From Eledone cirrhosa (Eukaryota), in the NCBI GenBank assembly GCA_964016885.1, contig OZ024740.1, positions 440,820,001 through 440,884,000 of the forward strand: a stretch of 64,000 bases of DNA, given 5' to 3'. Positions 10,791 through 62,367 of the stretch are shown piece by piece (position 1 is the first letter of the stretch; every line of letters begins with the position of its first letter). The notes under the pieces are model-generated. The model saw only the letters and a program-made list of their open reading frames with translations. It made no database searches and was not told the origin of the DNA. Position numbers and translations under genes: made by a program.

Positions 10791-10795
<5 letters not shown>

Positions 10796-10925
10796 AGTAT
10801 GTACACGTACATACATAAACGAGCAACGATGATTGCTGGACACTACGGCTTAATACGGGATGTTTGTTTACAAACAGACAGAGCATTACAATAAATGTTC
10901 GGTGAATCCATACGTACATATATAT
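10791..10925 (+). mobile_element. Family C retrozyme-like fragment with short 5' inversion
   Basis: tataagtatgtacacgtacatacat (inverted end) is fused to aaacgagcaacgatg...gaatccatacg, matching 40243-40340. Confidence 0.8.
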
Positions 10926-11559
10926 AAGTATGTAAGGATGTTGACATGATTATTTATGTTTCTGGTACGGAGAAAATTCTGTCTCCAGATTTTATTACCT
11001 AGGGAGATTAAATACCACAGCTCTGGCTGAAAGCTGACCAGGTTCTCAACCTCATCAAACACTAACGCAGGCCTGTGTGTGTATATATGTGTGTATGTAT
11101 GTACGTATGTCTGCATGTATGTATGTATGTACGTATGCATGTGTGTGTATGTTCGTATGTATGTATACACCCACACCTTTCATCACCATTGCTTCTTTTT
11201 GTTGTATTTCTGTTGAAGTTGTTCTTGTAACTGTTGTCAAAGTTGAAGTCCTTATATTCATTTTCTTTGATTTCTTTTGTTTTTCTTTTATCACCCTAGA
11301 GAATTCGTTGACAAGCTTCTTTTATTTATTTTCTTCGTTTTCTTCATTCAAATGCATTCACACTGGCTGTCTAAGAGACGTACAAATATGACTTGTAAAA
11401 TTTACCAAACTAAAGGGGCTTCCTACGCCCCAAAAAGCTTCAAACGCCCCTTAACACCCCTTGCTCCAAAACGCCTCCTGGAGCTCCGAAACGCCGCCCG
11501 TTGAGAACCTTTGGTTTATGTCATTATTTTGTTTAATTTATTTGTTGTTTCATATAATT

Positions 11560-17533: not shown

Positions 17534-17564
<31 letters not shown>

Positions 17565-17589
17565 GTTTGCGTGTGTGTGTGTGTGTGTG

Positions 17590-17947
17590 TAAAAGGTAAA
17601 CAAATAACAACACAATCGGTACAGTATATGGAAGGGATATATTAGGTTAACGCTTGATATAGCAGGAAGAGGGTCTTAACGTTTCGGACGCTAGTCCTTC
17701 GTCAGAAGAAAGAATGGGAAATAAGATATATTGAGGGGACGGGCGGGATGGAATTGGAAAACAAATGTCTTTAGATAAAAATAACAGGTCCATTCATGTT
17801 GACATCTCTTGCAAAACTGTTGGTGCTGGCGTTTTGTGTACGGTTTACTTTTTAGACAAGTGGATGATGGAGCACGTCTACCTGAAATAGAAAAAAAGAA
17901 AAAAAAACTGTTTTGTAAAGAGAGCTATACTTGAAAACGTGCGTAAG

Positions 17948-29372: not shown

Positions 29373-29454
29373 AAGCAGCGGCAGGATTTGAACCGACGCG
29401 GGTATTGCCCATTGGATTTCGAGCCCAACGCCTTAACCACTCGGCCACCACAAC
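29373..29454 (-). pseudogene. tRNA-Ser(CGA) pseudogene
   Basis: gttgtggtggccgagtggttaaggcgttgggctCGAaatccaatggg...ggttcaaatcctgcc; acceptor and T-stem mismatches. Confidence 0.8.

Positions 29455-38401: not shown

Positions 38402-38409
<8 letters not shown>
37900..38409 (+). pseudogene. CR1-clade LINE 3' fragment
   Basis: LERVQRLATRMV..LPYESRL*KLNLFSLERRRLRGDLI...WNQLPEEVV; (attga)n tail. Confidence 0.85.
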
Positions 38410-38436
<27 letters not shown>

Positions 38437-38440
<4 letters not shown>

Positions 38441-38452
38441 GTTTAACAGCCC

Positions 38453-38501
<49 letters not shown>

Positions 38502-38815
38502 GTAAGAATATTTTCGAAACAGCGAGTGGGTTTGAAATTATTAGAAATGTAAGCTATCGCCGTATTTTGACTAAAGAAATTAAAGAAATTATTTAGCCTG
38601 ATAGTGGGGTTAAGAACCCTTGGAGAAATGGAAAAAGATGAGTATTGACGTACATGGGCGTCAATACTCATCTTTTTCCATTTCTCCGAGGGTTCTTAAC
38701 CCCACTATCAGGCTAAATAATTTCTTTAATTTCTTTAGTCAAAATACGGCGATAGCTTACATTTCTAATAATTTCAAACCCACTCGCTGTTTCGAAAATA
38801 TTCTTACCTGATATA

Positions 38816-38868
<53 letters not shown>

Positions 38869-38884
38869 GGGCTGTTAAACTGCA
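38437..38884. repeat. Near-perfect palindrome with 8-nt spacer
   Basis: 38437-38650 is inverted to 38659-38884; spacer tacatggg. Confidence 0.95.
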
Positions 38885-39144
38885 TATATATATATATGTA
38901 TGTATATGGGCTGTTAAACTGCACATTTCTGTGGCGAAACGAACTAGATTCGTATCAGCAAGCTTATAGTTATAAGGTTGGTAATTTAAAACTCTACTTC
39001 AGAGATTTGATTCTGACTTAGTTTTTTTCTATTTAATTGCTAACCTGTAGATATTGTTCTGTATACAGTAACGGTTAAACTCACTTGTAATAATTCTTTA
39101 CACACATCTCACTGTGTAACACACTTCTATTTGTGTAATATATT

Positions 39145-39205
<61 letters not shown>

Positions 39206-39871
39206 TACCCACCATTACTAATAAATAATAGAATAGAAAGGGCTAAAGCAATAGGCATTGATGAATTACGAAAACAGAAACAAATTCAAGGTACGTCCAA
39301 ATATTCTATCATATATCTCAACACACAACCCAAGAAATGCGGAAGCTTACAACACTATTCACAAGACATCCCACTACTGAAACAAGACCCAAGAATGAAA
39401 AAAGCCCTTGAAACACACAAAATAATCAAAAGTAAAAGACAACCGAAATCACTGAAAACATCACTCACTAATGCCAAATTACCTACCACAAACCCACAAC
39501 CAACTGTCAAAAAAATTTGGTCGCTCTAATTGTGGAACCTGCAATCACCTCATTGAAGGCAACACGTATACATTTAAATCAGGACAAAATTTTGCTGTAA
39601 AAAATCACTTAACTTGCTCATCAAAAAATCTACTTTATGCCATTAAATGTAAAGGATGCAAAGAAGATTATATAGGACAAACTAAACTCACACTCAGAAA
39701 CAGAATGACAGTTCATCGCCAACAATTACGAGATCCAACCACGAGACAGATACCACTAAGCGCATATCTAGACATATGCGCAAGTAATAAGGCACCCAAA
39801 TTTCAAGTCTTCCCATTTTACCTTTGCGCTGACAATACAACAGAACAAATACGAATAAATAAGGAAAATAT

Positions 39872-40907
39872 ATAAGTATGTACACGTACATACATATATG
39901 TATACAGACGTACAGTAGTATGTATATATATATATGTGTGCATGTATGTATATATATATACATATTACTGTACGTCTGTATACATATATGTATGTACGTG
40001 TGCATACTTATATTTAAGTAACAGCCGTACTAAGAGTGAGAAAGGAAATTTCGTTTCATTTTTCGTTTATCGTTTTCGGTGCACCCGGCCGATTAACCCA
40101 CTCGATATGCAAATTGGGCTACTCAGCCGTTAATATGCATAAGGTAAGTATATACGTTCAACAATCTGGCAGGAAGACATACGTTGCTGACGATAGCTAA
40201 TAAGCTTGAAACTAGTACAGCGTTCCCTTGTCAGTGTTGAACAAACGAGCAACGATGGTTGCTGGACACTACGGCTTAATACGGGATGTTTGTTTACAAA
40301 CACACCGAGCATTATAATAAATTTCGGTGAATCCATACGTGCATATATATATATGTGTGCATGTATGTATATATATATACATACTACTGTATGTCTGTAT
40401 ACATATATGTATGTACGTGTACATACTTATATTTAAATAACAGCCGTACTAAGAATGGGAAATGAAATTTCGTTTCATTTTTTCTGTTTATCGTTTTCGG
40501 TGCACCCGGCCGATTAACCCACTCGATATGCAAATTGGGCTACTCAGTCGTTAATATGCATAAGGTAAGTATATACGTCCAACAATCTGGCAGGGAGGTA
40601 TACGTTGCTGACGATAGCTAATAAGCTTTAAACTAGTACAGCGTTCCTTTGTCAGTGTTGAACAAACGAGCAACGATGGTTGCTGGAGACTACGGCTTAA
40701 TACGGGATGTTTGTTTACAAACACCCCGAGGATTATAATGAATTTTCGGTGAATCCATACGTGCATATATATATGTGTGCATGTATGTATATATGTATAA
40801 TACTACTGTACGTCTGTATACATATATGTATGTACGTGTACATACTTATATTTAAGTAACAGCCGTACTAAGAGTGGGAAATGAAATTTCGTTTCATTTT
40901 TTCCGTT
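39872..40907 (+). mobile_element. Family C retrozyme-like tandem (421-bp unit, ~2.3 copies) with 5' inversion and TSD
   Basis: Period 421; one hammerhead per unit; taaggaaaatat at 39860-39871 and 40908-40919. Confidence 0.85.
40182..40222 (+). ncRNA. Minimal hammerhead ribozyme (intact)
   Basis: cgttg-CTGACGA-tagct aata agctt-GAAAC-ta-GTA-cagcg; the copy at 40603-40643 has GAAA>TAAA. Confidence 0.82.
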
Positions 40908-41161
40908 TAAGGAAAATATGTTTATTCAAAAATATAGACCAGCATTAAATATGGTTTAATATACATTATGTCAACACCATAACATGCTAACCATCCAAAC
41001 AGACACATACACACACACACACATAACACCTTCTACTTTAGAAAATAAAAACCCGAACTAAATAAACCTTAACATACGTTTGCACTGACAATACAACAGA
41101 ACAAATACGAATAAGGAAAATATGTTCATTCAAAAATATTTCTACTCACGGAATCATTTTC

Positions 41162-41200
<39 letters not shown>

Positions 41201-41879
41201 ATATATATATATATATATATATTCTCTTCATCTTAACATGCTAACCATACTCCCACACACACATAACCCCCCCCACCACCACCACCACAGACACACACAA
41301 CTCCCTCCCCCATTTTTACTAATAGAATCATCTTCCTACACACACACACACACACAAGCACACAAATAAACATAAATATCTTTACTTTCTTTATTTCAAT
41401 AGAAAATCTGAATTCTGACACCCCCAGCGAACCAACCGTATTCACTGAACCAGAGCAATTCTCCCATCCCATGTCTCTTGACCATTATCTTTTGCTTGTC
41501 ATAAAATTCTCTAAAAGGCTACAAAATAAATTCCCAAATACGGGCGAGAATTTTAATGAACTTGTTCACGTGACAGTAATAATTTCATTTATAACCAATC
41601 AAATTATATTTATTAAAAAAAGCCTTCGTGAGCCCCTTTTTTTTAAGTAAAAAGAAATTCAAACACTCATATATGAAAAAGCAACCTGAGCCCCCCCCCC
41701 CCTGTTTGAATAACTTTGTAACGCGAACTGGCGCGAAATTTATTATACTTATTGACCAAATAATCAAATTACTTCTCTAAAAACCTGGCGTTTCGAGTCA
41801 CATTTTTCCATATAAAACAAGTAACATTCAAAGACCAACCAGATGTGAGGAAAACCTCAGACCCCCCATCTCAACTCTA

Positions 41880-41915
41880 CTTTTGAAAGGCAGAAGAACT
41901 GCGAAACCGGTAAAG
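41880..41915 (+). ncRNA. Minimal hammerhead, U3-A8 type (A9 mutated)
   Basis: ctt-TTGAAAG-gcag aagaa ctgc-GAAAC-cg-GTA-aag. Confidence 0.55.
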
Positions 41916-42045
41916 AAACCAAATAAATATATATATATTTTTTAAAATAAGACTCCAGGTACATTTTCGATTTCATCTTTTTTTCTTCATACTTTCACTC
42001 GTGTAGGACACCTCGGTTATTTTTCAATTTGTAAAAAAACCTCAC

Positions 42046-42088
<43 letters not shown>

Positions 42089-42231: not shown

Positions 42232-42401
42232 ATGTATATATATATATATTGTTATGCTTTGGGAGGTTCAGGTTGCCAATAAGAAACACACGCACCAATT
42301 GCTTTCACTTCAATTTATTATAAATTAAATTTATAAATTTAGGAATTTATAAATTTCCGGTTGGTTGGTTGGTTCCACAACCAGACGATTGTTCATATAT
42401 T

Positions 42402-42444
42402 GTCAAAGTTCTTTCGTCACACATTCTGTGACCTCTTCAGTGAC
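42402..42444 (-). ncRNA. Hammerhead-like motif in terminal repeat (mirror 46008-46050 has CCGAAGA)
   Basis: gtca-CTGAAGA-g-gtcaca gaatg tgtgac-GAAAgaactt-tgac. Confidence 0.6.
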
Positions 42445-42680
42445 TGCGGATTCTTTTCTTTGTTTTAGTGCCTCTCCTTTGTTCTGTCCTACGCCATCTT
42501 GTTTTTGTGTGTGTTGTGTGCTTAGTTTGCGCATGCGCCACATCCGGGTGTCTGTGTGTGTTTATATTTGTTTATTTATTTGTTTATTTACATGTTACCG
42601 GTTGGTTGTTTGTTCTATGTGTGTGTGTGTTTTCATGTTGTCCTTAATTGTAAGTTGTGATGTTGCTGTTCCATTCATGT

Positions 42681-43175
42681 TTAATTTTGTCGGAGTTTAT
42701 TTATGTTTATTGCCTCTGTGGTTTGTCTAAACATTGCGTCTTTTCTGTGTGTAGATTCTATTTTCATTTCTATGTTCTCTAATTTACCCTTATGCTCTAT
42801 TTTAGCTTGTTGGGGGAGTACAGATGATTCTTTACTATCTTGAAGCTCTCGCCAGTGTTCATTTATCCGTTCTCCTATACTATGAGCTGTCTCACCTATG
42901 TACACTATATTCTTATCTCTACAATATCCTTCAGTAAATCTTATGCTATATACTACATTTCTAGTGTTACAGTTAATATGGGGGCTTAGTTTACGGATTA
43001 TATATTTCTTATCTATACAGGGAGGTCTTTGAAAAGGGTATGTATGGCTAATAAGTGTTTTTATGGAGGTACTTGGTCTTTCTACTATCTTAATATTGAG
43101 TTTGAGTTTATGTTTAACTAGGTCCCTTCTAAATGTGTAAGCTAATTCACCTCTAGGGGTTGTATTGATGAACAT
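42681..43175 (-). pseudogene. PLE GIY-YIG endonuclease
   Basis: CNTRNVVYSI..YIGETAHSIGERINEH..RQTTEAINI. Confidence 0.88.
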
Positions 43176-43465
43176 TACACTCTGGTATTTATTGCTATCA
43201 TACCATGAGTTTATTCTATTAACCTTATTCCTAGTTCTTCTATTCTATTCCAAAATTTGCTCCTATGCTAGAGGCAGGTCCCATTTGTATCATTATTTAC
43301 CATTTTTTCAGAATTTGGTTCTGGCTCCTCTATAATCTCTGATTTTATCTCTCTGATAGTAACCAGAGAACTGCATACGGTGGATGAAGTGTTGTATGTG
43401 TCTCTATAGTTCTTTGGGGTTGCACATGCGGGACACGTTTCTCATCACCCGTACCAAATCCGCAA

Positions 43466-44623
43466 TCAGTATGTTGATTTTGGTATGGCCGAAACAGCTG
43501 AGTTTCGGTGGATCAGATATTTGGAAGCCATGGGTTTAGCATAATGGGAATGGAGGATTTGTTTTTTGTTATTAATGGTATCTAACCAGAGCTCTGTGTC
43601 TAGTACAGGTAATCGATGGTTGGGGTGTTTGCTTGGGTAGTCTATAGTAATTCTAATACTCTGGTGGATGGAGTTAGCTATTTTCTGGATGCTTTCCATG
43701 GTGTTTTTCTCTAATTCCTGACTGTTCTCTAGTGGGGGTGTCTTTACAACGTTGTTTATATCATCAACGTAGCGGGAATACATTATCAAGCTTAATAGGT
43801 TGCTGTCTTCTAATTGTTCTTTAAGTTTAAGTTTAAGTCTATTGTCCCACCATACCATGAATAGGTTAGCTATGTCACCTGCAATGCTAACACCAATGGC
43901 TGCTCCCTCCTCTTGGGCATATGTTTTTCCATTAAATTTAAACATATGTTCCATAAGGGTTAATTTTATACTGGCCCCCACCGCATGTGCAATCATTTTC
44001 TTTAGTTCATCGTGGTTTTCGGGGGTCCGTATGGCTCTGGTCCACCCGTTCCATCTATCTGTGTGGGTTTTCTTGGCCATTGAGGTAATGGTAGGTGGTC
44101 TGCCTCTCTCTTGCTGGTCTTGTAGGGCACAGGTTGTAAGGTCATATGTATCTAGATAATCATTACTGTAGGTAAGTTTAAGTAGGAGTCCCAGCTCACT
44201 GGTATCAATCCCACGGAATTCAACATTGCTCTCACTAATCACTTCTACGCATTTCTCCCCAGCAAAATACACGTCAATAGATGGATATAGGGACACAACA
44301 TCCATACTACCTATTATGAAGTTTGTTAGGTCCCTAGATCGGTTACTTTCGCCGATTCTGCTGAGGAGGTCCTCCGTGCTGTCACATATATCTGGGGACA
44401 TTTTAATGATGGGGCGTATGATCAGGGAGAGGAAGTAGGAAAGTCTGTAGTTACTAGCAATGTTAGCTCCACAGACTGGCCGTGTTGGTGGTCCTGTGAC
44501 AGGGTCACTGCTCGTTTTATGGTCTTTTCGAAGCCCATACAACGCTGGCACATCATTGTTCCAGGCCTGGAAGTTGTTGGCAGTCCTTTTGTTGGGCTGC
44601 ATTATGTTTGTCCACATCATCAT
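43466..44623 (-). pseudogene. PLE reverse transcriptase (frameshifted from flanking ORFs)
   Basis: PALYGLRKDHK, TRPV, SMDVVSLYPSI, GAAIG..IANLFM, RYVDDI, LPVLD. Confidence 0.92.
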
Positions 44624-46262
44624 ATGGCCATTGAGGGTTTTTTCCCTACCTCATGCTCTTGTGTTAGTGATGTGGGTTGCATTGCCTGGATGTAGTTTGA
44701 CAGACTGTAAACCGACATTCTGCCAGACTTGTCTGTTGGAAAGCATGAATATCTCCATTACGCGAGCGCTGCATGAGCTTACAAAAGCCATTTGCAGATT
44801 TTTTTCCCAGTTGCTGGGCCTCCATTCTATTTTTCTTTTTGATATACTGTTCTGTAATATTTCTAAGATTAGATCTAGCTATACTAAATTGTGCTTCCGT
44901 TTGTTCATCGACCTGCGACGGCAATTCCGTGCGTTTGTTAAAAGCTAAAGTCGTGGCGTGGACTCGTCGTAGGTCGAAGGACATATCGGAAGGATTATAA
45001 AACGTAGAGTTCCAGGCTGCTGCTTTATGAGTACTATTGCTATTGTTATTGTTAGTTGTGTTGTTTCTATTTCTATTTCCACCAACAGCCTCATGGTTGT
45101 TTCTATGTCTCTCATTATTACTCCTGTCTCTTTCCTCTGGCTCATTGTTATTATCTACTCTATTTTGTGTGTCTGTGTGTTCGTCCTGGTTATTTTCTCT
45201 GTCAGTATCGCTAGTCTCCCTTCTCCTTTCAATCCTATTACCTTCCCTTATTTCTGTGTTACTGTCATTACCTGTTTTCTGTGTCTGTGTGTTTGTTAAG
45301 ATTGTGGTGGTGGTGAGAGGCATAGAATATGTGTGTGTTGTTGTTGTTGTTGTGTGCTGTTGTTGATGTGTGTTGTTGTTGTCTCTGTGTATGTTATTAT
45401 TGTTGTGTTTGTTGTTATTGTTGTTTGTGTCTGTTGTTGTTGTTTCTGAGTATGTTATTATTGTTGATGTGTGTGTTGTTATCGTTGTTTGTGTCTGTGT
45501 CTGTTGTTGTTGGGATGTGTGTTGTATGTGTGTGTGTGCATATGCTGTTACTTTTGTTTTTGTTTTTGCTTTTGAGGCTCCAACGTAATTTTGTAAATGA
45601 TTTTTCTATTTCTGACAAGCATTTTATCATATTTACCTTATTATATGTGGCATATTTAGGTGGTAGCTGTAATATCGATAATTCATCACAGTCGACTGTA
45701 GTGTTGCCGTATATATTTGTGTTGTTGTTGTTGAATTCACCTGTTAATGAGATTTCGGCCATATTTATACCGTCAATTTTGTCGGGATACCTATCGATAT
45801 TCTCTAAAGTATCTTGATTTAGTTTCATCTGTTTGAGCCACCTTAGTTTCTTATTAAAGTGCTTGTCACATTCTTGAACAATGTACTTTTCTTCAAGACA
45901 TATAAGGTTTATAAATATTAATTATAATATAGCACACAACACACACAAAAACAAGATGGCGTAGGACAGAACAAAGGAGAGGCACAAAAACAAAGAAAAA
46001 ATCCCCAGTCACCGAAGAGGTCACAGAATGTGTGACGAAAGAACTTTGACAATATATGAACAATCGTCTGGTTGTGGAACCAACCAGCCAACCGGAAATT
46101 TATAAATTCCTAAATTTATAAATTTAATTTATAATAAATTGAAGTGAAAGCAACTGGTGCGTGTGTTTCTTATTGGCAACATGACTCTCCCAAAGCATAA
46201 CAATATCGGTTTCAACACACGTTTTCAGATAAAGAATCTTGCTAAACAAATTCAGAAACGAA

Positions 46263-51018: not shown

Positions 51019-51100
51019 GCTGTGGTGGCCGAGTGGTTAAGGCGTTGGACTTGAAATCCAATGGGCGTTACCCGCGCAGTTTAGAATCCTGCCCCCAGCG
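51019..51100 (+). tRNA. tRNA-Ser(TGA), probably pseudogene
   Basis: gctgtggtggccgagtggttaaggcgttggactTGAaatccaatggg..cccgcgcagtttagaatcctgcccccagcg; T-loop TTCGA>TTAGA, one acceptor mismatch; downstream T-run. Confidence 0.8.
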
Positions 51101-52138: not shown

Positions 52139-52220
52139 AAGCAGCGGCAGGATTTGAACCTACGCGGGTATTGCTCATGGGATTTCGAGCCCAACGCCTT
52201 AACCACTCGGCCACCACAGC
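52139..52220 (-). pseudogene. tRNA-Ser(CGA) pseudogene
   Basis: Paralog of 29373-29454. Confidence 0.8.
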
Positions 52221-55407: not shown

Positions 55408-56362
<955 letters not shown>

Positions 56363-56370
56363 CCAGTAAG

Positions 56371-56464
56371 ACCCCGACAGCTGAGCTCAAGCCGTTTCGA
56401 CGGCTAATTCTGGACTAAATGAAAATTTATCCTGGTATTTAAATAGCCGATCTTCTCAAGGGGT
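56371..56464 (-). ncRNA. Hammerhead ribozyme, U3-A8 variant
   Basis: acccc-TTGAGAA-gatcggcta...tagccgtc-GAAA-cggcttgagctcagctg-TC-ggggt. Confidence 0.8.
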
Positions 56465-57563
56465 AATTCCATATATGGTCAAAGTGATTGTCAAAAATCA
56501 GTAGTAATTCTGTGGTTGCAAATTAGTAGGGGAGATGGTGGCTAAACCTGCCAGTAGGAGAAAGAGGGGAGGGGTGGAGTAGACCCAATCAAGCGTTGGT
56601 AGTGCCAGCTACAGCTGGGCATGAGGTCAAAGAAGATACAGGGGAGGGGGAGGGGGAGGAAGTCGGAACGGTAGGTAGAACAATGGGGGGTAGAAATATA
56701 TAGGAAAGAAAAAATACTGAGAGTGAAGAAAAGCAAATAAGTGTAAAGAAAAAAGTAAAGTAAATTAAATTCTACGACCTAGGTCTCTAGCTATTGTTAG
56801 GCTAGAATAAATAAATAAATAAAGAAAGAAAGAAGTAAAGAAAGAAATAAAGAAATAACGAAATAAGTAAAAGAACTAGGTGGGACGGATTAGGCAAGGA
56901 CCCTTTTAAGAGGTATAAGTACGTAAATGATACGGTGACGGGTCAACAAAAGGGGCCAAAATACTAAAGAGACTACCACGAAATAAACAATAAAGGTTTC
57001 CATCCCGGGCACAATGCCAGCAACCACCCAGTGCAGCAAAGTGAACTTGTACGAGATAATAATTCTGAGTCCCGAGAAAAATATATACTAATGCTAACTC
57101 TAAAAGATCTAAAACAAGCTACATGAAACTTCGTACGAAGCAAAGGTAGAATACGGAAAAATAAATTCAGAATCCACCCCGCCCAAAAGAAAGCGAAGAA
57201 AGAAATACTGAAACGAAAAAATAAGGCATAAGTGCCACTAAGAAATATAGAGGGCACAGAGAATAGTGGGAGCGGTCGGAAAAAGGGGACAAGTATCCGG
57301 GGTCTAAACCAACTGCTATAAAGGGCGGAGTCCGCCAAATCTATCATAGACTAGGGGAGGGGGTGGGGGTACTAAGGCTACAAGGGGCCAAAGGGCAGCC
57401 TCGGGTGGGCGAGAAAAGACGCCGACAAAGGAGAAGAGCTGGGGTAGAAGGACTAAGGAGAGAGGGGGGAAGGAAATAAAGGAAGCGATAAAAGAATACA
57501 AAGAAGATCTTACGTCTCCCTTGGTAAGCAGGGTTACCCATTGCAAAATCGGCAAGTGGGGTG

Positions 57564-58490
57564 TTATAGCCCTAGTCTACCCCCCCCCCCCCCCGGGTCA
57601 TTATGGGGTTTGAGGGCGAGGTAAGTCCTACGCAATCTATGTTTACATGCAGTAACCAGTTCATCTTTCTTGTTTAGGAGTTGGTCCGTCGAAAACAGCA
57701 TTTGTAAAGTTTCCTCCGAGCATAAATTGCACGGACGGCGTCCTCCCGTGTAAGAATTGGCTCTGGACAGTAATCTCCAAGTGAGATCATAGGTGATGTT
57801 GTTGTCCTTGAGGTCCCATATGTGGCCCGAAAGTGTAGTGGCGTGACGCCAGGCCGGGTTTCGGAAGGTATGTCTATGTTGGTATAGCCGGGTCTTGAAG
57901 TCACATGCGGTAAGTCCTATATATGCTTTGTTGGAGGTATCCGTCCTCACGTTGCACTGGTAGATCACATTACGGTCTCTGCATCTATTGTCGAGTGGGC
58001 AAATAGATCTATCCGGGCAGTTACACCTCCTGGTCGGTTCTCCACTATATTTAGGTTATTTCTGCCATCGGGGTTGAGTTTTTTGTTGTTAGAGGAGACG
58101 ATGTTTTGTGCGAAGTTTGGTGTAGTGCTGTAAGAGAGTTTGATGGTATTTTTGTTAATTATGTTGTGGTAGCGGTGTTGTAATGGGAAGTGTTTTTCAA
58201 TGAGCCTAAAGAATAGTTTCCCGATGGGAGTTGTCACCTCTGCGTTGTGGGGAGGATTGAACCATGTTACATTGCGTGAGCGGCGGTGTCTCCTGCTGGT
58301 TCCGCTAATGGGAGCTGGACAGTAGGATATTTCCTCCCGGAAACCACTCCGCTTGAGGGCCTGGTTGTAATAAGGCGCATGTTCATCGAATATCCGCTCA
58401 TTAGCTGACAAACGGGATATGCGGAGGGAGATGTTTTTGACCAGGTTGTTTGTGATGTTCCTAGGATGGTTTGATCGGCGGTGGATGTAG
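57564..58490 (-). pseudogene. PLE RT C-terminus + GIY-YIG (1-nt frameshift near 58047)
   Basis: YIHRRSNHP...LSANERIF..PYYNQALKRSGF..VTWFNPP..KLSYS; VIYQC..YIGLT..KTRLYQH. Confidence 0.88.
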
Positions 58491-58491
58491 T

Positions 58492-59151
58492 GGGAAACTA
58501 TTCTTTAGGCTCATTGAAAAACACTTCCCATTACAACACCGGTACCACAACATAATTAACAAAAATACCATCAAACTCTCTTACAGCACTACACCAAACT
58601 TCGCACAAAACATCATCTCCTCTAACAACAAAAAACTCAACCCCGATGGCAGAAATAACCTAAATAGCAGTGGAGAACCGACCAGGAGGTGTAACTGCCC
58701 GGATAGATCTATTTGCCCACTCGACAATAGATGCAGAGACCGTAATGTGATCTACCAGTGCAACGTGAGGACGGATACCTCCAACAAAGCCTATATAGGA
58801 CTTACCGCATGTGACTTCAAGACCCGGCTATACCAACATAGACATACCTTCCGAAACCCGGCCCGGCGTCACGCCACTACACTTTCGGGCCACATATGGG
58901 ACCTCAAGGACAACAACATCACCTATGATCTCACTTGGAGATTACTGTCCAGAGCCAATTCTTACACGGGAGGACGCCGTCCGTGCAATTTATGCTCGGA
59001 GGAAACTTTACAAATGCTGTTTTCGACGGACCAACTCCTAAACCAGAAAGATGAACTGGTTACTGCATGTAAACATAGATTGCGTAGGACTTACCTCGCC
59101 CTCATACCCCATAATGACCCGGGGGGGGGGGGGGGTAGACTAGGGCTATAA
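58492..59151 (+). CDS. PLE GIY-YIG endonuclease, in frame, 5'-truncated
   Basis: RRCNC..CPLDNRCRDRNVIYQC..AYIGLT..FKTRLYQH..TTLSGHIW..CNLCSEE..LLN..ACKH. Confidence 0.88.
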   Translation, partial: GKLFFRLIEKHFPLQHRYHNIINKNTIKLSYSTTPNFAQNIISSNNKKLNPDGRNNLNSSGEPTRRCNCPDRSICPLDNRCRDRNVIYQCNVRTDTSNKAYIGLTACDFKTRLYQHRHTFRNPARRHATTLSGHIWDLKDNNITYDLTWRLLSRANSYTGGRRPCNLCSEETLQMLFSTDQLLNQKDELVTACKHRLRRTYLALIPHNDPGGGGGRLGL

Positions 59152-60253
59152 CACCCCACTTGCCGATTTTGCAATGGGTAACCCCTGCTTGCCAAGGGAG
59201 ACGTAAGATCTTCTTTGTATTCTTTTATCGCTTCCTTTATTTCCTTCCCCCCTCTCTCCTTAGTCCTTCTACCCCAGCTCTTCTCCTTTGTCGGCGTCTT
59301 TTCTCGCCCACCCGAGGCTGCCCTTTGGCCCCTTGTAGCCTTAGTACCCCCACCCCCTCCCCTAGTCTATGATAGATTTGGCGGACTCCGCCCTTTATAG
59401 CAGTTGGTTTAGACCCCGGATACTTGTCCCCTTTTTCCGACCGCTCCCACTATTCTCTGTGCCCTCTATATTTCTTAGTGGCACTTATGCCTTATTTTTT
59501 CGTTTCAGTATTTCTTTCTTCGCTTTTCTTTTGGGCGGGGTGGATTCTGAATTTATTTTTCCGTATTCTACCTTTGCTTCGTACGAAGTTTCATGTAGCT
59601 TGTTTTAAATCTTTTAGAGTTAGCATTAGTATATATTTTTCTCGGGACTCAGAATTATTATCTCGTACAAGTTCACTTTGCTGCACTGGGTGGTTGCTGG
59701 CATTGTGCCCGGGATGGAAACCTTTATTGTTTATTTCGTGGTAGTCTCTTTAGTATTTTGGCCCCTTTTGTTGACCCGTCACCGTATCATTTACGTACTT
59801 ATACCTCTTAAAAGGGTCCTTGCCTAATTCGTCCCACCTAGTTCTTTTACTTATTTCGTTATTTCTTTATTTCTTTCTTTACTTCTTTCTTTCTTTATTT
59901 ATTTATTTATTCTAGCCTAACAATAGCTAGAGACCTAGGTCGTAGAATTTAATTTACTTTACTTTTTTCTTTACACTTATTTGCTTTTCTTCACTCTCAG
60001 TATTTTTTCTTTCCTATATATTTCTACCCCCCATTGTTCTACCTACCGTTCCGACTTCCTCCCCCTCCCCCTCCCCTGTATCTTCTTTGACCTCATGCCC
60101 AGCTGTAGCTGGCACTACCAACGCTTGATTGGGTCTACTCCAGCCCCTCCCCTCTTTCTCCTACTGGCAGGTTTAGCCACCATCTCCCCTACTAATTTGC
60201 AACCACAGAATTACTACTGATTTTTGACAATCACTTTGACCATATATGGAATT

Positions 60254-60347
60254 ACCCCTTGAGAAGATCGGCTATTTAAATACCAGGATAAATTTTCATT
60301 TAGTCCAGAATTAGCCGTCGAAACGGCTTGAGCTCAGCTGTCGGGGT
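60254..60347 (+). ncRNA. Hammerhead ribozyme, U3-A8 variant
   Basis: Mirror of 56371-56464. Confidence 0.8.
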
Positions 60348-60457
60348 CTTACTGGTTCCTATTACCCACTCTACTACCTCAAGTATTGAGTACTTTGGTG
60401 CGTTATGGTCCACCTGGTTCCTTACCACATTTCCTTCGTTATATATATATATATATA

Positions 60458-61375: not shown

Positions 61376-61742
61376 CTCTCATGAAGCTCCGACTAGGCCT
61401 GAAAATCGATTGAAGGTGTTTATCATTTTTTTTTCAACTTACATGAAAATCTTTTTTCTCGTTCGTTCCAGTCAGAACCTACTTAGTGGTTAATTGTATC
61501 CAGCATGATCAAAACCTGAATGATGGTGTTGAAATATATAGTGGTAAGGAACTCTCGGGTGTACTGGACAGCAGGAGGTCTTCGGAGAAGAATCCCCACC
61601 CTCTCAAGCAAGTGTTTCGATCTTACTCTCTTAAGGAGGCCGGGCTGCATCCAAGTCATGACTCCTGGGTCCCCTTCTGCTGACATTTAACGACTTCGAT
61701 ATCAGAGACTTGTTGTGCGTATATATGTATATATATATATAC

Positions 61743-62030
61743 ATGCTCCATCATCCACTTTTCTAAAAACCAAATCATACACAAAACGCCAGCACTAACA
61801 GTTTTCCAAGAGATGTCAACATGAATGGACCTGTTATTTTTATCTAAAGACATTTGTTTTCCAATTCCATCCCGCCCGCCCCCTCAATCCATCTTATTTC
61901 TCATTCTTTCTTCTGATGAAGGACTAGCGTCCGAAACGTTAAGACCCTCTTCCTGCTATATCAAGCGTTAACCTAATATATACCTTCCAGATACTGTACC
62001 GATTGTGTTGTTATTTATGTTTACCTTTTA
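61743..62030 (+). mobile_element. PLE 3' repeat with minimal hammerhead (61909-61944)
   Basis: tctt-CTGATGA-aggac tagc gtcc-GAAACGTT-aaga; homolog of 17590-17870. Confidence 0.8.
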
Positions 62031-62367
62031 CATACATACATATATATATATACACACACACATACACACATTTTTTCCTTCTTTATTTCTCCATGTAATA
62101 TCAAAAGTGAGTTCTAAGATTTAAATTAAGGATTTTAGAGAGAGAGAGGGGAGAGAGAAAGAAAGAATTAACCCTAGTAGTAGTACTTTATTTATCAACC
62201 ACGAAAGGATGAAAGGCAAATTTGACTTTAGCGAGATCTGAACTCCGAACGCAAAGAACCAGAAAGAATACAGCATTCTCTCCAACTTTATAACGACTCT
62301 CTTAATTTTCCGCCATACAACAAATATACGTATGACATTCATGGTCCTGTACCTCCCGAGGGAGTCG

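Follow-up and report, generated by a model that had tools for sequence, protein, structure and literature searches.

How a short DNA unit that encodes no protein can spread through a genome and come to lie, as a tandem, inside the endonuclease gene of another mobile element is the question raised by this locus. The insert lies in the window, a term used here for the whole 64,000-nucleotide stretch of Eledone cirrhosa DNA that was analysed. By its anatomy, as read from the letters, the insert is a non-LTR retrozyme. It carries the insertion signature of Penelope-like elements (PLEs) and was likely made, with a probability of roughly 0.68, by a borrowed pair of PLE enzymes copying one circular 421-nt RNA.

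Architecture of the insert and of its family

The tandem repeat occupies positions 39924-40909, with a period of 421, 2.3 copies and 94% matches, and neighbouring 421-bp units are 94.6% identical. Examination of reading frames and architecture gave neither a protein-coding frame nor an LTR in the unit; the longest ATG-to-stop frames, of 63 and 71 aa, consist of low-complexity sequence. The description given in an initial sequence-only reading, an ORF-less 421-bp unit repeated about 2.3 times, therefore holds. The two arms of the insert meet in a TA run. The short inverted arm is 64 nt long and has 2 nt of microhomology with the target, and the 3' end of the direct arm, located ~272-274 nt past the cleavage site, has a 2-nt TA microhomology with it.

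The characters of a non-LTR retrozyme are present: the period falls within ~150-450 bp, each unit has one hammerhead motif, the family is dispersed and of high copy number, and the target duplication, at 12 bp, is longer than 4 bp. Exact matches to the 31-nt ribozyme core number 10,046 genome-wide and those to a downstream 24-mer 12,470, against 0 for the reversed control of each, which supplies the copy number that the sequence-only reading had left to be counted. This number, together with the lack of pLTR homology in the sampled PLE families, supports the class proposed there. Multi-unit arrays of the 421-bp family occur genome-wide. Further copies had been reported in the window at 10791 and 55408, and both are confirmed, with refined limits (Table 1); the second consists of a minus-strand arm with the T end described below and an intact ribozyme core, and a plus-strand arm with the S end. 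A description of such a family in cephalopods was not found in the literature search.

Table 1. Features of the insert, its host and other family copies, in positions of the window
Feature	Positions	Strand	Remark
Family stub, without ribozyme	10791..10941		Inverted S end (short) and ~120 nt in direct orientation
Host, left part: 5'-truncated Neptune-type PLE, frameshifted	39204..39871	+	Thumb/linker and GIY-YIG to insertion
Target-site duplication, left copy, TAAGGAAAATAT	39860..39871	+	12 bp
Short inverted arm	39872..39935	-	Starts at family S end, ~214-222 nt past cleavage site
Direct arm	39924..40907	+	2.3 units of 421 bp; stops at T end
Putative 5' splice-site-like AAG/GTAAGT	40141..40149	+	~40 nt upstream of ribozyme
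Hammerhead motif 1, type I, intact core	40181..40223	+	CTGACGA at 40187
Hammerhead motif 2, broken core	40602..40644	+	CTGACGA at 40608; GAAA>TAAA at 40629
Tail between S and T ends	40852..40907	+	~52 nt
Host, right part: last codons, 3'UTR, pLTR	40908..42058	+	Ends at host tailed end before TA tract
Target-site duplication, right copy, TAAGGAAAATAT	40908..40919	+	12 bp
Duplication of endonuclease C-terminal codons in host 3'UTR	41075..41139	+	~69 nt; self-match
Second family insertion, head-to-head	55413..56279		Between TA tracts

The 421-bp unit bears a predicted type I hammerhead, and cleavage of motif 1 would occur after position 40217. Stem I comprises 6 bp and an extension, stem II comprises 4 bp with a U-U at its base and a tetraloop, and stem III comprises 2 bp inside the palindrome ACUAGU. 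One such motif per unit, the second altered from GAAA to TAAA, had been claimed, and both were found. Across 218 copies, a sample partly chosen on the core, the core is intact in 192 and the stems are 92-100% paired, save for the U-U and one extension pair. The stem I pair 388:3 is kept paired in 96% of these copies through five pair types, a covariation that reflects a few subfamily events and not 218 independent ones. No hammerhead family was among the 135 matches of an Rfam scan; consequently, the motif call relies on anatomy and covariation. Rfam microRNA matches were rejected as AT-repeat hairpins below threshold. With z of -0.6 to -0.9, the isolated ribozyme folds no better than its shuffles, and the structure of lowest energy predicted for it differs from the catalytic junction; the whole unit reaches z -4.7, much of it from repeat hairpins. 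AG/GTA motifs precede the hammerhead in two PLE pLTRs from the same genome, as the splice-site-like motif does in the unit.

The host element and the target site

The interrupted host is about 96% identical, in its left part, to intact 775-aa copies of its family. Many such intact frames occur, with the linker CGRSNCGTC, and the RT and GIY-YIG Pfam domains were found in host relatives. The succession of RT, CX2-5CxxC linker and C-terminal GIY-YIG is that of Neptune-type elements. Since the same linker also occurs in the Nematis clade (PMC8557442) and the assignment was made without a tree, the name Neptune is provisional. The host pLTR is unrelated to the 421-bp unit and has a hammerhead motif of its own, which differs from that of the unit. 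The left flank matches the Pfam GIY-YIG profile PF01541 above the cut-off, and the host reading frame at the insertion is RINKEN / KENMFIQKYRPALN, in agreement with the earlier claim that a GIY-YIG gene is split.

The 12-mer TAAGGAAAATAT stands on both sides of the insert. It is present once, in matching context, in nearly all host copies examined, with a point change in two. In contigs from three public runs, 39859 is joined to 40908 or else 39861 to 40910, and 10-12 letters at the join agree with both flanks. Because the 12-mer is single in the host copies and the contigs join across the insert, the 12-bp target duplication noted in the sequence-only reading is real. That reading had also taken positions 41080-41139 for an uninterrupted copy of the target, which proved to be mistaken. 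The stretch belongs to the duplication within the host 3'UTR, seen as a self-match in 14 of 17 ORF-bearing host copies and in older copies too, and was rejected as an independent empty site because the duplication recurs across the host family.

The junction of endonuclease and insert is found at only two places, the window and a locus on chromosome 2 (L068), and most family copies lie within (TA)n tracts. Targeting of PLE genes was rejected on these grounds. Since the genome abounds in copies of PLE endonuclease genes, chance best accounts for the landing of the insert in one of them.

Fixed ends and the insertion signature

Copies of the 421 family have scattered 5' ends and two 3' limits, located ~214-222 nt (S) or 272-274 nt (T) from the cleavage site. 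The ends were surveyed at 103 chromosome-1 loci along one arm, which were chosen by pattern and not by architecture and comprise 114 elements. Among the 37 head-to-head elements with both ends callable, 36 combine S with T, one combines T with T, and none combines S with S; 16 head-to-head elements with an uncallable end, 4 complex elements and 2 that were cut off are outside this count. With one local duplicate counted once, the pairing becomes 35+1, for which a hand calculation gives ~4e-10 under independence. The 55 single arms divide into 27 with a T end, 22 with an S end and 6 others. Arms that exceed one unit run on into another unit, and the flanks are mostly TA tracts, as judged by eye and uncounted.

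In the autonomous host family, the same S/T rule holds for 9 of the 10 inverted copies in which both ends are visible, and the tenth is unclassified; these loci had been selected for intact frames. The two ends of the host family are 68 nt apart. The accessible text of PMC8557442 and PMC3846280 names (TA)n targets, inverted arms and a tail on one side as marks of PLEs. In work with a purified PLE protein, predicted to be dimeric, both strands were cut and then extended, starting from two internal sites (PMC11167929). As the end rule is common to autonomous PLEs, the 421 family is tied to PLE machinery by mechanism and not by co-occurrence. The fixed, paired ends thus support the earlier proposal, and the family is very probably mobilised by this machinery.

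This insert has two features that are hallmarks of LINEs, namely a target duplication and a 5' piece in inverted orientation. It could consequently be regarded as a SINE-like passenger of a LINE, with an inversion produced by L1-type twin priming. However, twin priming leads to variable inverted ends, whereas both arms here start at fixed sites, one each, and the pairing of ends matches that of the genome's own PLEs. The pairing counts largely refute the LINE reading, whose probability is close to nil. Of the ~65-nt 5' inversion claimed in the sequence-only reading, the inverted piece itself stands (39872-~39935), but its L1-type character was rejected: it is a second arm beginning at a fixed family end.

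The second copy of the junction lies at L068:3122-7973 on chromosome 2. The endonuclease-insert junction with 2.1 units is followed there by an empty version of the window locus, which includes ~940 bp of the window's upstream flank, and the whole lies between TA tracts. On derived characters, the empty piece groups with the 5' part of the window locus and the insert-bearing piece with its 3' part, and the two copies have unit-specific mutations in common, including the broken second ribozyme. These relationships suggest a PLE-mediated transduction with template switches, in which one later copy may have been assembled from two alleles, one empty and one filled, and from a third copy. A possible alternative is gene conversion. 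The L068 copy further suggests that linear RNA, too, can serve a PLE enzyme as template, with synthesis passing through an intact hammerhead.

The template: uniformity of arrays and reading through the cleavage site

In 100 consecutive copies of the stretch directly following the cleavage site, 97 were scored as reading through the site and one more was added on inspection; 2 stop within ~4 nt of it. With 98 of 100 reading through, cleaved linear RNA is not the usual template. This direct test did not confirm the 5' ends that had seemed to lie at the cleavage site, and they were rejected. The columns of the cleavage junction are 97-100% conserved.

Units within one insertion differ by 3.5-3.9%, compared with 7.1% between loci. 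Subfamily markers agree in 85% of comparisons on the same arm and in 91% on opposite arms, so that 9-15% disagree within an insertion. Rare variants are shared in 14% of cases on the same arm, in 11% on the opposite arm at the same index and in 14% on the opposite arm at a different index, which indicates no register effect, although the numbers are small; an excess of rare-variant sharing between opposite arms was rejected, as it was gone once alignment edges had been masked. The young insertion L208, with 10 pieces in two arms, has 38G, 252A and 405C in nearly every covering unit and 316T in 8 of 9 units. A few insertions are mosaics (L104, L151). The long arrays L069, L070 and L101 contain chimeric units and period-2/3 patterns, which are best explained, on their sequence, by later local duplication. 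These long, old arrays were accordingly rejected as proof of rolling-circle copying.

A very young non-coding hammerhead tandem family with a 310-bp unit was observed at L371-L390 (e.g. L374:658-9485 and L378:1060-6634). It has 3,513 exact core matches, is less than 1% diverged and is probably still active. This sister family is related to the 421 family only around the ribozyme, which has the same topology in both. Across 19 loci, the S/T pairing is found in 15 of 15 independent head-to-head elements; one more is cut off and 4 are single arms. Arms reach up to 27 units, or 9 on each side. In L378, L379, L381, L385 and L388, variants specific to the locus are fixed over both arms. Private variants are scattered without a period, and the cleavage junctions are seamless. 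The fixation of a new mutation throughout an array at its birth needs a template of one unit, for which a ligated circle is the simplest reading. The strongest evidence of homogeneity comes from this sister family and not from the older 421 family.

A cleaved linear monomer would impose the same bottleneck, provided that the enzyme, on reaching the 5' end of a monomer, jumped each time to the 3' end of another, and the mosaics and the chimeric L068 copy show that jumps occur. Such jumps, however, predict stops or scars at the cleavage site, where only 2 of 100 copies stop; the conserved junction columns of the 421 family and the seamless junctions over 27 units in the sister family do not agree with them either. 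Moreover, a mixed pool of monomers would not keep locus-specific variants fixed. Jumping between monomers is consequently a very improbable source of the tandems.

The other linear template is an uncleaved multimer. It would be transcribed from master arrays that concerted evolution keeps uniform and copied by PLE machinery, with the hammerhead largely a passenger. In vitro, a PLE used uncleaved RNA and did not need the hammerhead (PMC11167929). Against a circle also stands that, of 9 Xenopus retrozyme dimers, 8 failed to cleave (bioRxiv 10.64898/2026.07.22.740005, accessible text). Reading through the cleavage site fits this template equally well, local duplication does lengthen arrays, and L068 looks reverse-transcribed from linear RNA across hammerhead 1. 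On the other hand, a separate long, uniform master would be needed for each haplotype, and the haplotypes are many in a family less than 1% diverged. Private variants in the sister-family arrays remain unhomogenised, same-index units of the two arms lack excess sharing (11% versus 14%, on small numbers), and stem I covaries across subfamilies. On this balance, a linear multimer is an unlikely template.

The template is therefore probably a monomer RNA circle, as judged from reading through the cleavage site and from the homogeneity of young arrays; both indirectly support the earlier proposal that copying went more than once round such a circle. Under the circular reading, tandem loci would be transcribed, their hammerheads would cut the RNA into unit lengths, probably as dimers via the ACUAGU palindrome, and a ligase would close the monomers. 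The target, usually (TA)n, would be cut on both strands with a stagger, which is visible here as 12 nt. Priming would then occur over ~2 nt of TA microhomology, with one strand starting at S and its partner at T, 52 nt on. Both enzymes would circle the same RNA for variable distances, here presumably 0.15 and 2.3 turns, and the two cDNAs would be joined head to head at a microhomology, a join that can be seen in the insert. If one arm failed, a single S- or T-ended arm would remain. Unequal crossing-over would later lengthen some old arrays.

Relation to pLTRs and the search for a partner

The sequence-only reading had raised the possibility that the unit is only the pLTR of an autonomous PLE. 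The survey of pLTRs covered about nine PLE families, represented by 30 GIY-YIG loci, 40 longer stretches and a second clade in the window. No ends homologous to the 421-bp unit were found in these families; matches of the unit within them are nested insertions or matches of 14-23 nt. No PLE protein match lies within 900 nt upstream of any of the 55 single-arm copies, which also have no upstream flank in common. Among the families sampled, none has the unit as its pLTR.

The pLTR of an unsampled PLE, with tandems formed by satellite-like local amplification of pLTR stubs, would explain the pLTR-like anatomy (splice-donor-like motif, hammerhead, S and T ends). In Xenopus, a resemblance of retrozymes to pLTRs has been described (bioRxiv 10.64898/2026.07.22.740005), and a survey of about nine families is not exhaustive. 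This origin is nevertheless highly improbable in view of the absent homology and of the 0 of 55 upstream proteins. It also fits poorly with arms that run from one unit into another and with young arrays that are dispersed and have multi-unit arms on either side of the inversion.

At L301-L304, intact 784-aa frames that are 99.5-100% identical define a second Neptune-type family, which is apparently active. This family is a candidate partner of the retrozyme. A likeness, seen by eye, between the T end and an end of the 784-aa family was rejected, since the best p values of 0.015-0.023, over 28 comparisons against shuffles, are not significant. A partner search with a distant relative as the query mostly returned the host family.

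Two further observations concern PLEs. A second PLE clade lies on the minus strand at 42246-46206 of the window and is abundant genome-wide; it is ~25% identical to the host protein, its N-terminal region is rich in asparagine and threonine, and it has inverted terminal repeats as well as a hammerhead motif of its own. In several Neptune-type pLTR hammerheads, a U3-A8 core (UUGANAA) replaces C3-G8, with the stem III palindrome ACCGGU; the loci are 41880-41910 in the window, L303:5715-5762, L313:2079-2110 and L338.

Comparison with known elements and significance

Non-LTR retrozymes are known, while their mobilising machinery and the origin of genomic tandems from circles have so far only been proposed; mobilisation by PLEs and multimeric cDNA from circles were put forward in PMC7229834. 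The 421 family resembles the metazoan elements described there in its short non-coding tandem units, one type I hammerhead per unit, low GC, thousands of copies and a target duplication of more than 4 bp. Axolotl HHR_Amex2 likewise has a U-U mismatch at the base of helix II, and the unit size is near that of a mussel family (350-390 bp; PMC7229834). For those retrozymes, circular RNA and cleavage were demonstrated, whereas both are predictions for the 421 family. Conversely, fixed paired ends and head-to-head arms characterise the 421 family and are not described in the accessible text of PMC7229834. According to a 2020 review (PMC7761336, available part), retrozyme repeats have no motif indicating a partner. 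The literature search, which left most subscription papers outside its reach, gave no report of retrozymes whose S and T ends are paired or whose two-armed arrays are uniform.

A study of Xenopus retrozymes by Li, Clavereau and Pollet (bioRxiv 10.64898/2026.07.22.740005) likewise concludes on PLE dependence and defines the elements by tandem plus hammerhead. In its accessible text, the PLE link is based on co-occurrence and pLTR homology, and local amplification is favoured for the tandems. In contrast, the 421 family has no pLTR homologue among the sampled families, its link to PLEs is the insertion signature, and its young arrays look born long. With EN+ Neptune-type PLEs (PMC8557442, PMC3846280, PMC11167929, in the parts available), it has in common partial tandems, a head-to-head inverted copy, a one-sided tail, (TA)n targets, two internal starts and a hammerhead upstream of the ends. 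Unlike these elements, it has no ORF, and the whole element is one pLTR-like unit repeated. Tails measure ~52 nt in the 421 family, about 30 nt in the sister family and 68 nt in the host family, compared with 30-40 in described PLEs.

The genomic evidence on the retrozyme mechanism is unusually direct. The 421 family carries a countable PLE signature that is common to autonomous elements of its own genome, and young arrays of the 421 and sister families look born long and uniform on both arms, which makes the rolling-circle model directly testable. Two apparently active PLE families, with intact 775-aa and 784-aa frames at least 99.5% identical, are available, along with short RNA substrates whose starts are known. 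The 421 family also bears on how PLEs build tandem and inverted structures and on what PLE hammerheads serve for. A more tentative extension, for which the odds are well short of even, is that a dimeric Penelope enzyme performing two simultaneous rolling-circle reverse transcriptions on one ribozyme-made circle, each begun by one of the cut strands at its own fixed site, represents the general PLE mechanism, with retrozymes as its minimal parasites. If true, this two-start mechanism would explain pseudo-LTRs, partial tandems, inverted arms and the one-sided tail. Circle making would be the job of the pLTR hammerhead, and the genome would contain at least two generations of retrozyme parasites.

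Other repeats in the window

A third hammerhead-bearing repeat occurs in two copies, 88% alike and with TA-rich flanks, at 17547-17880 and 61738-62071. A palindromic repeat with 198-nt arms (98%) lies between TA tracts at 38408-38907 and is present in several other loci too. Instead of a canonical hammerhead core, it has a CTGATAG motif before a hairpin; it may represent one more head-to-head stub of PLE type. Directly past the TA tract of the second family copy, an inverted repeat of ~4 kb, near-perfect at 98-100%, extends over 56361-60357. A tRNA match above the Rfam threshold was found at 51019-51100, and weaker tRNA-like matches lie at 52140-52220 and 29380-29448.
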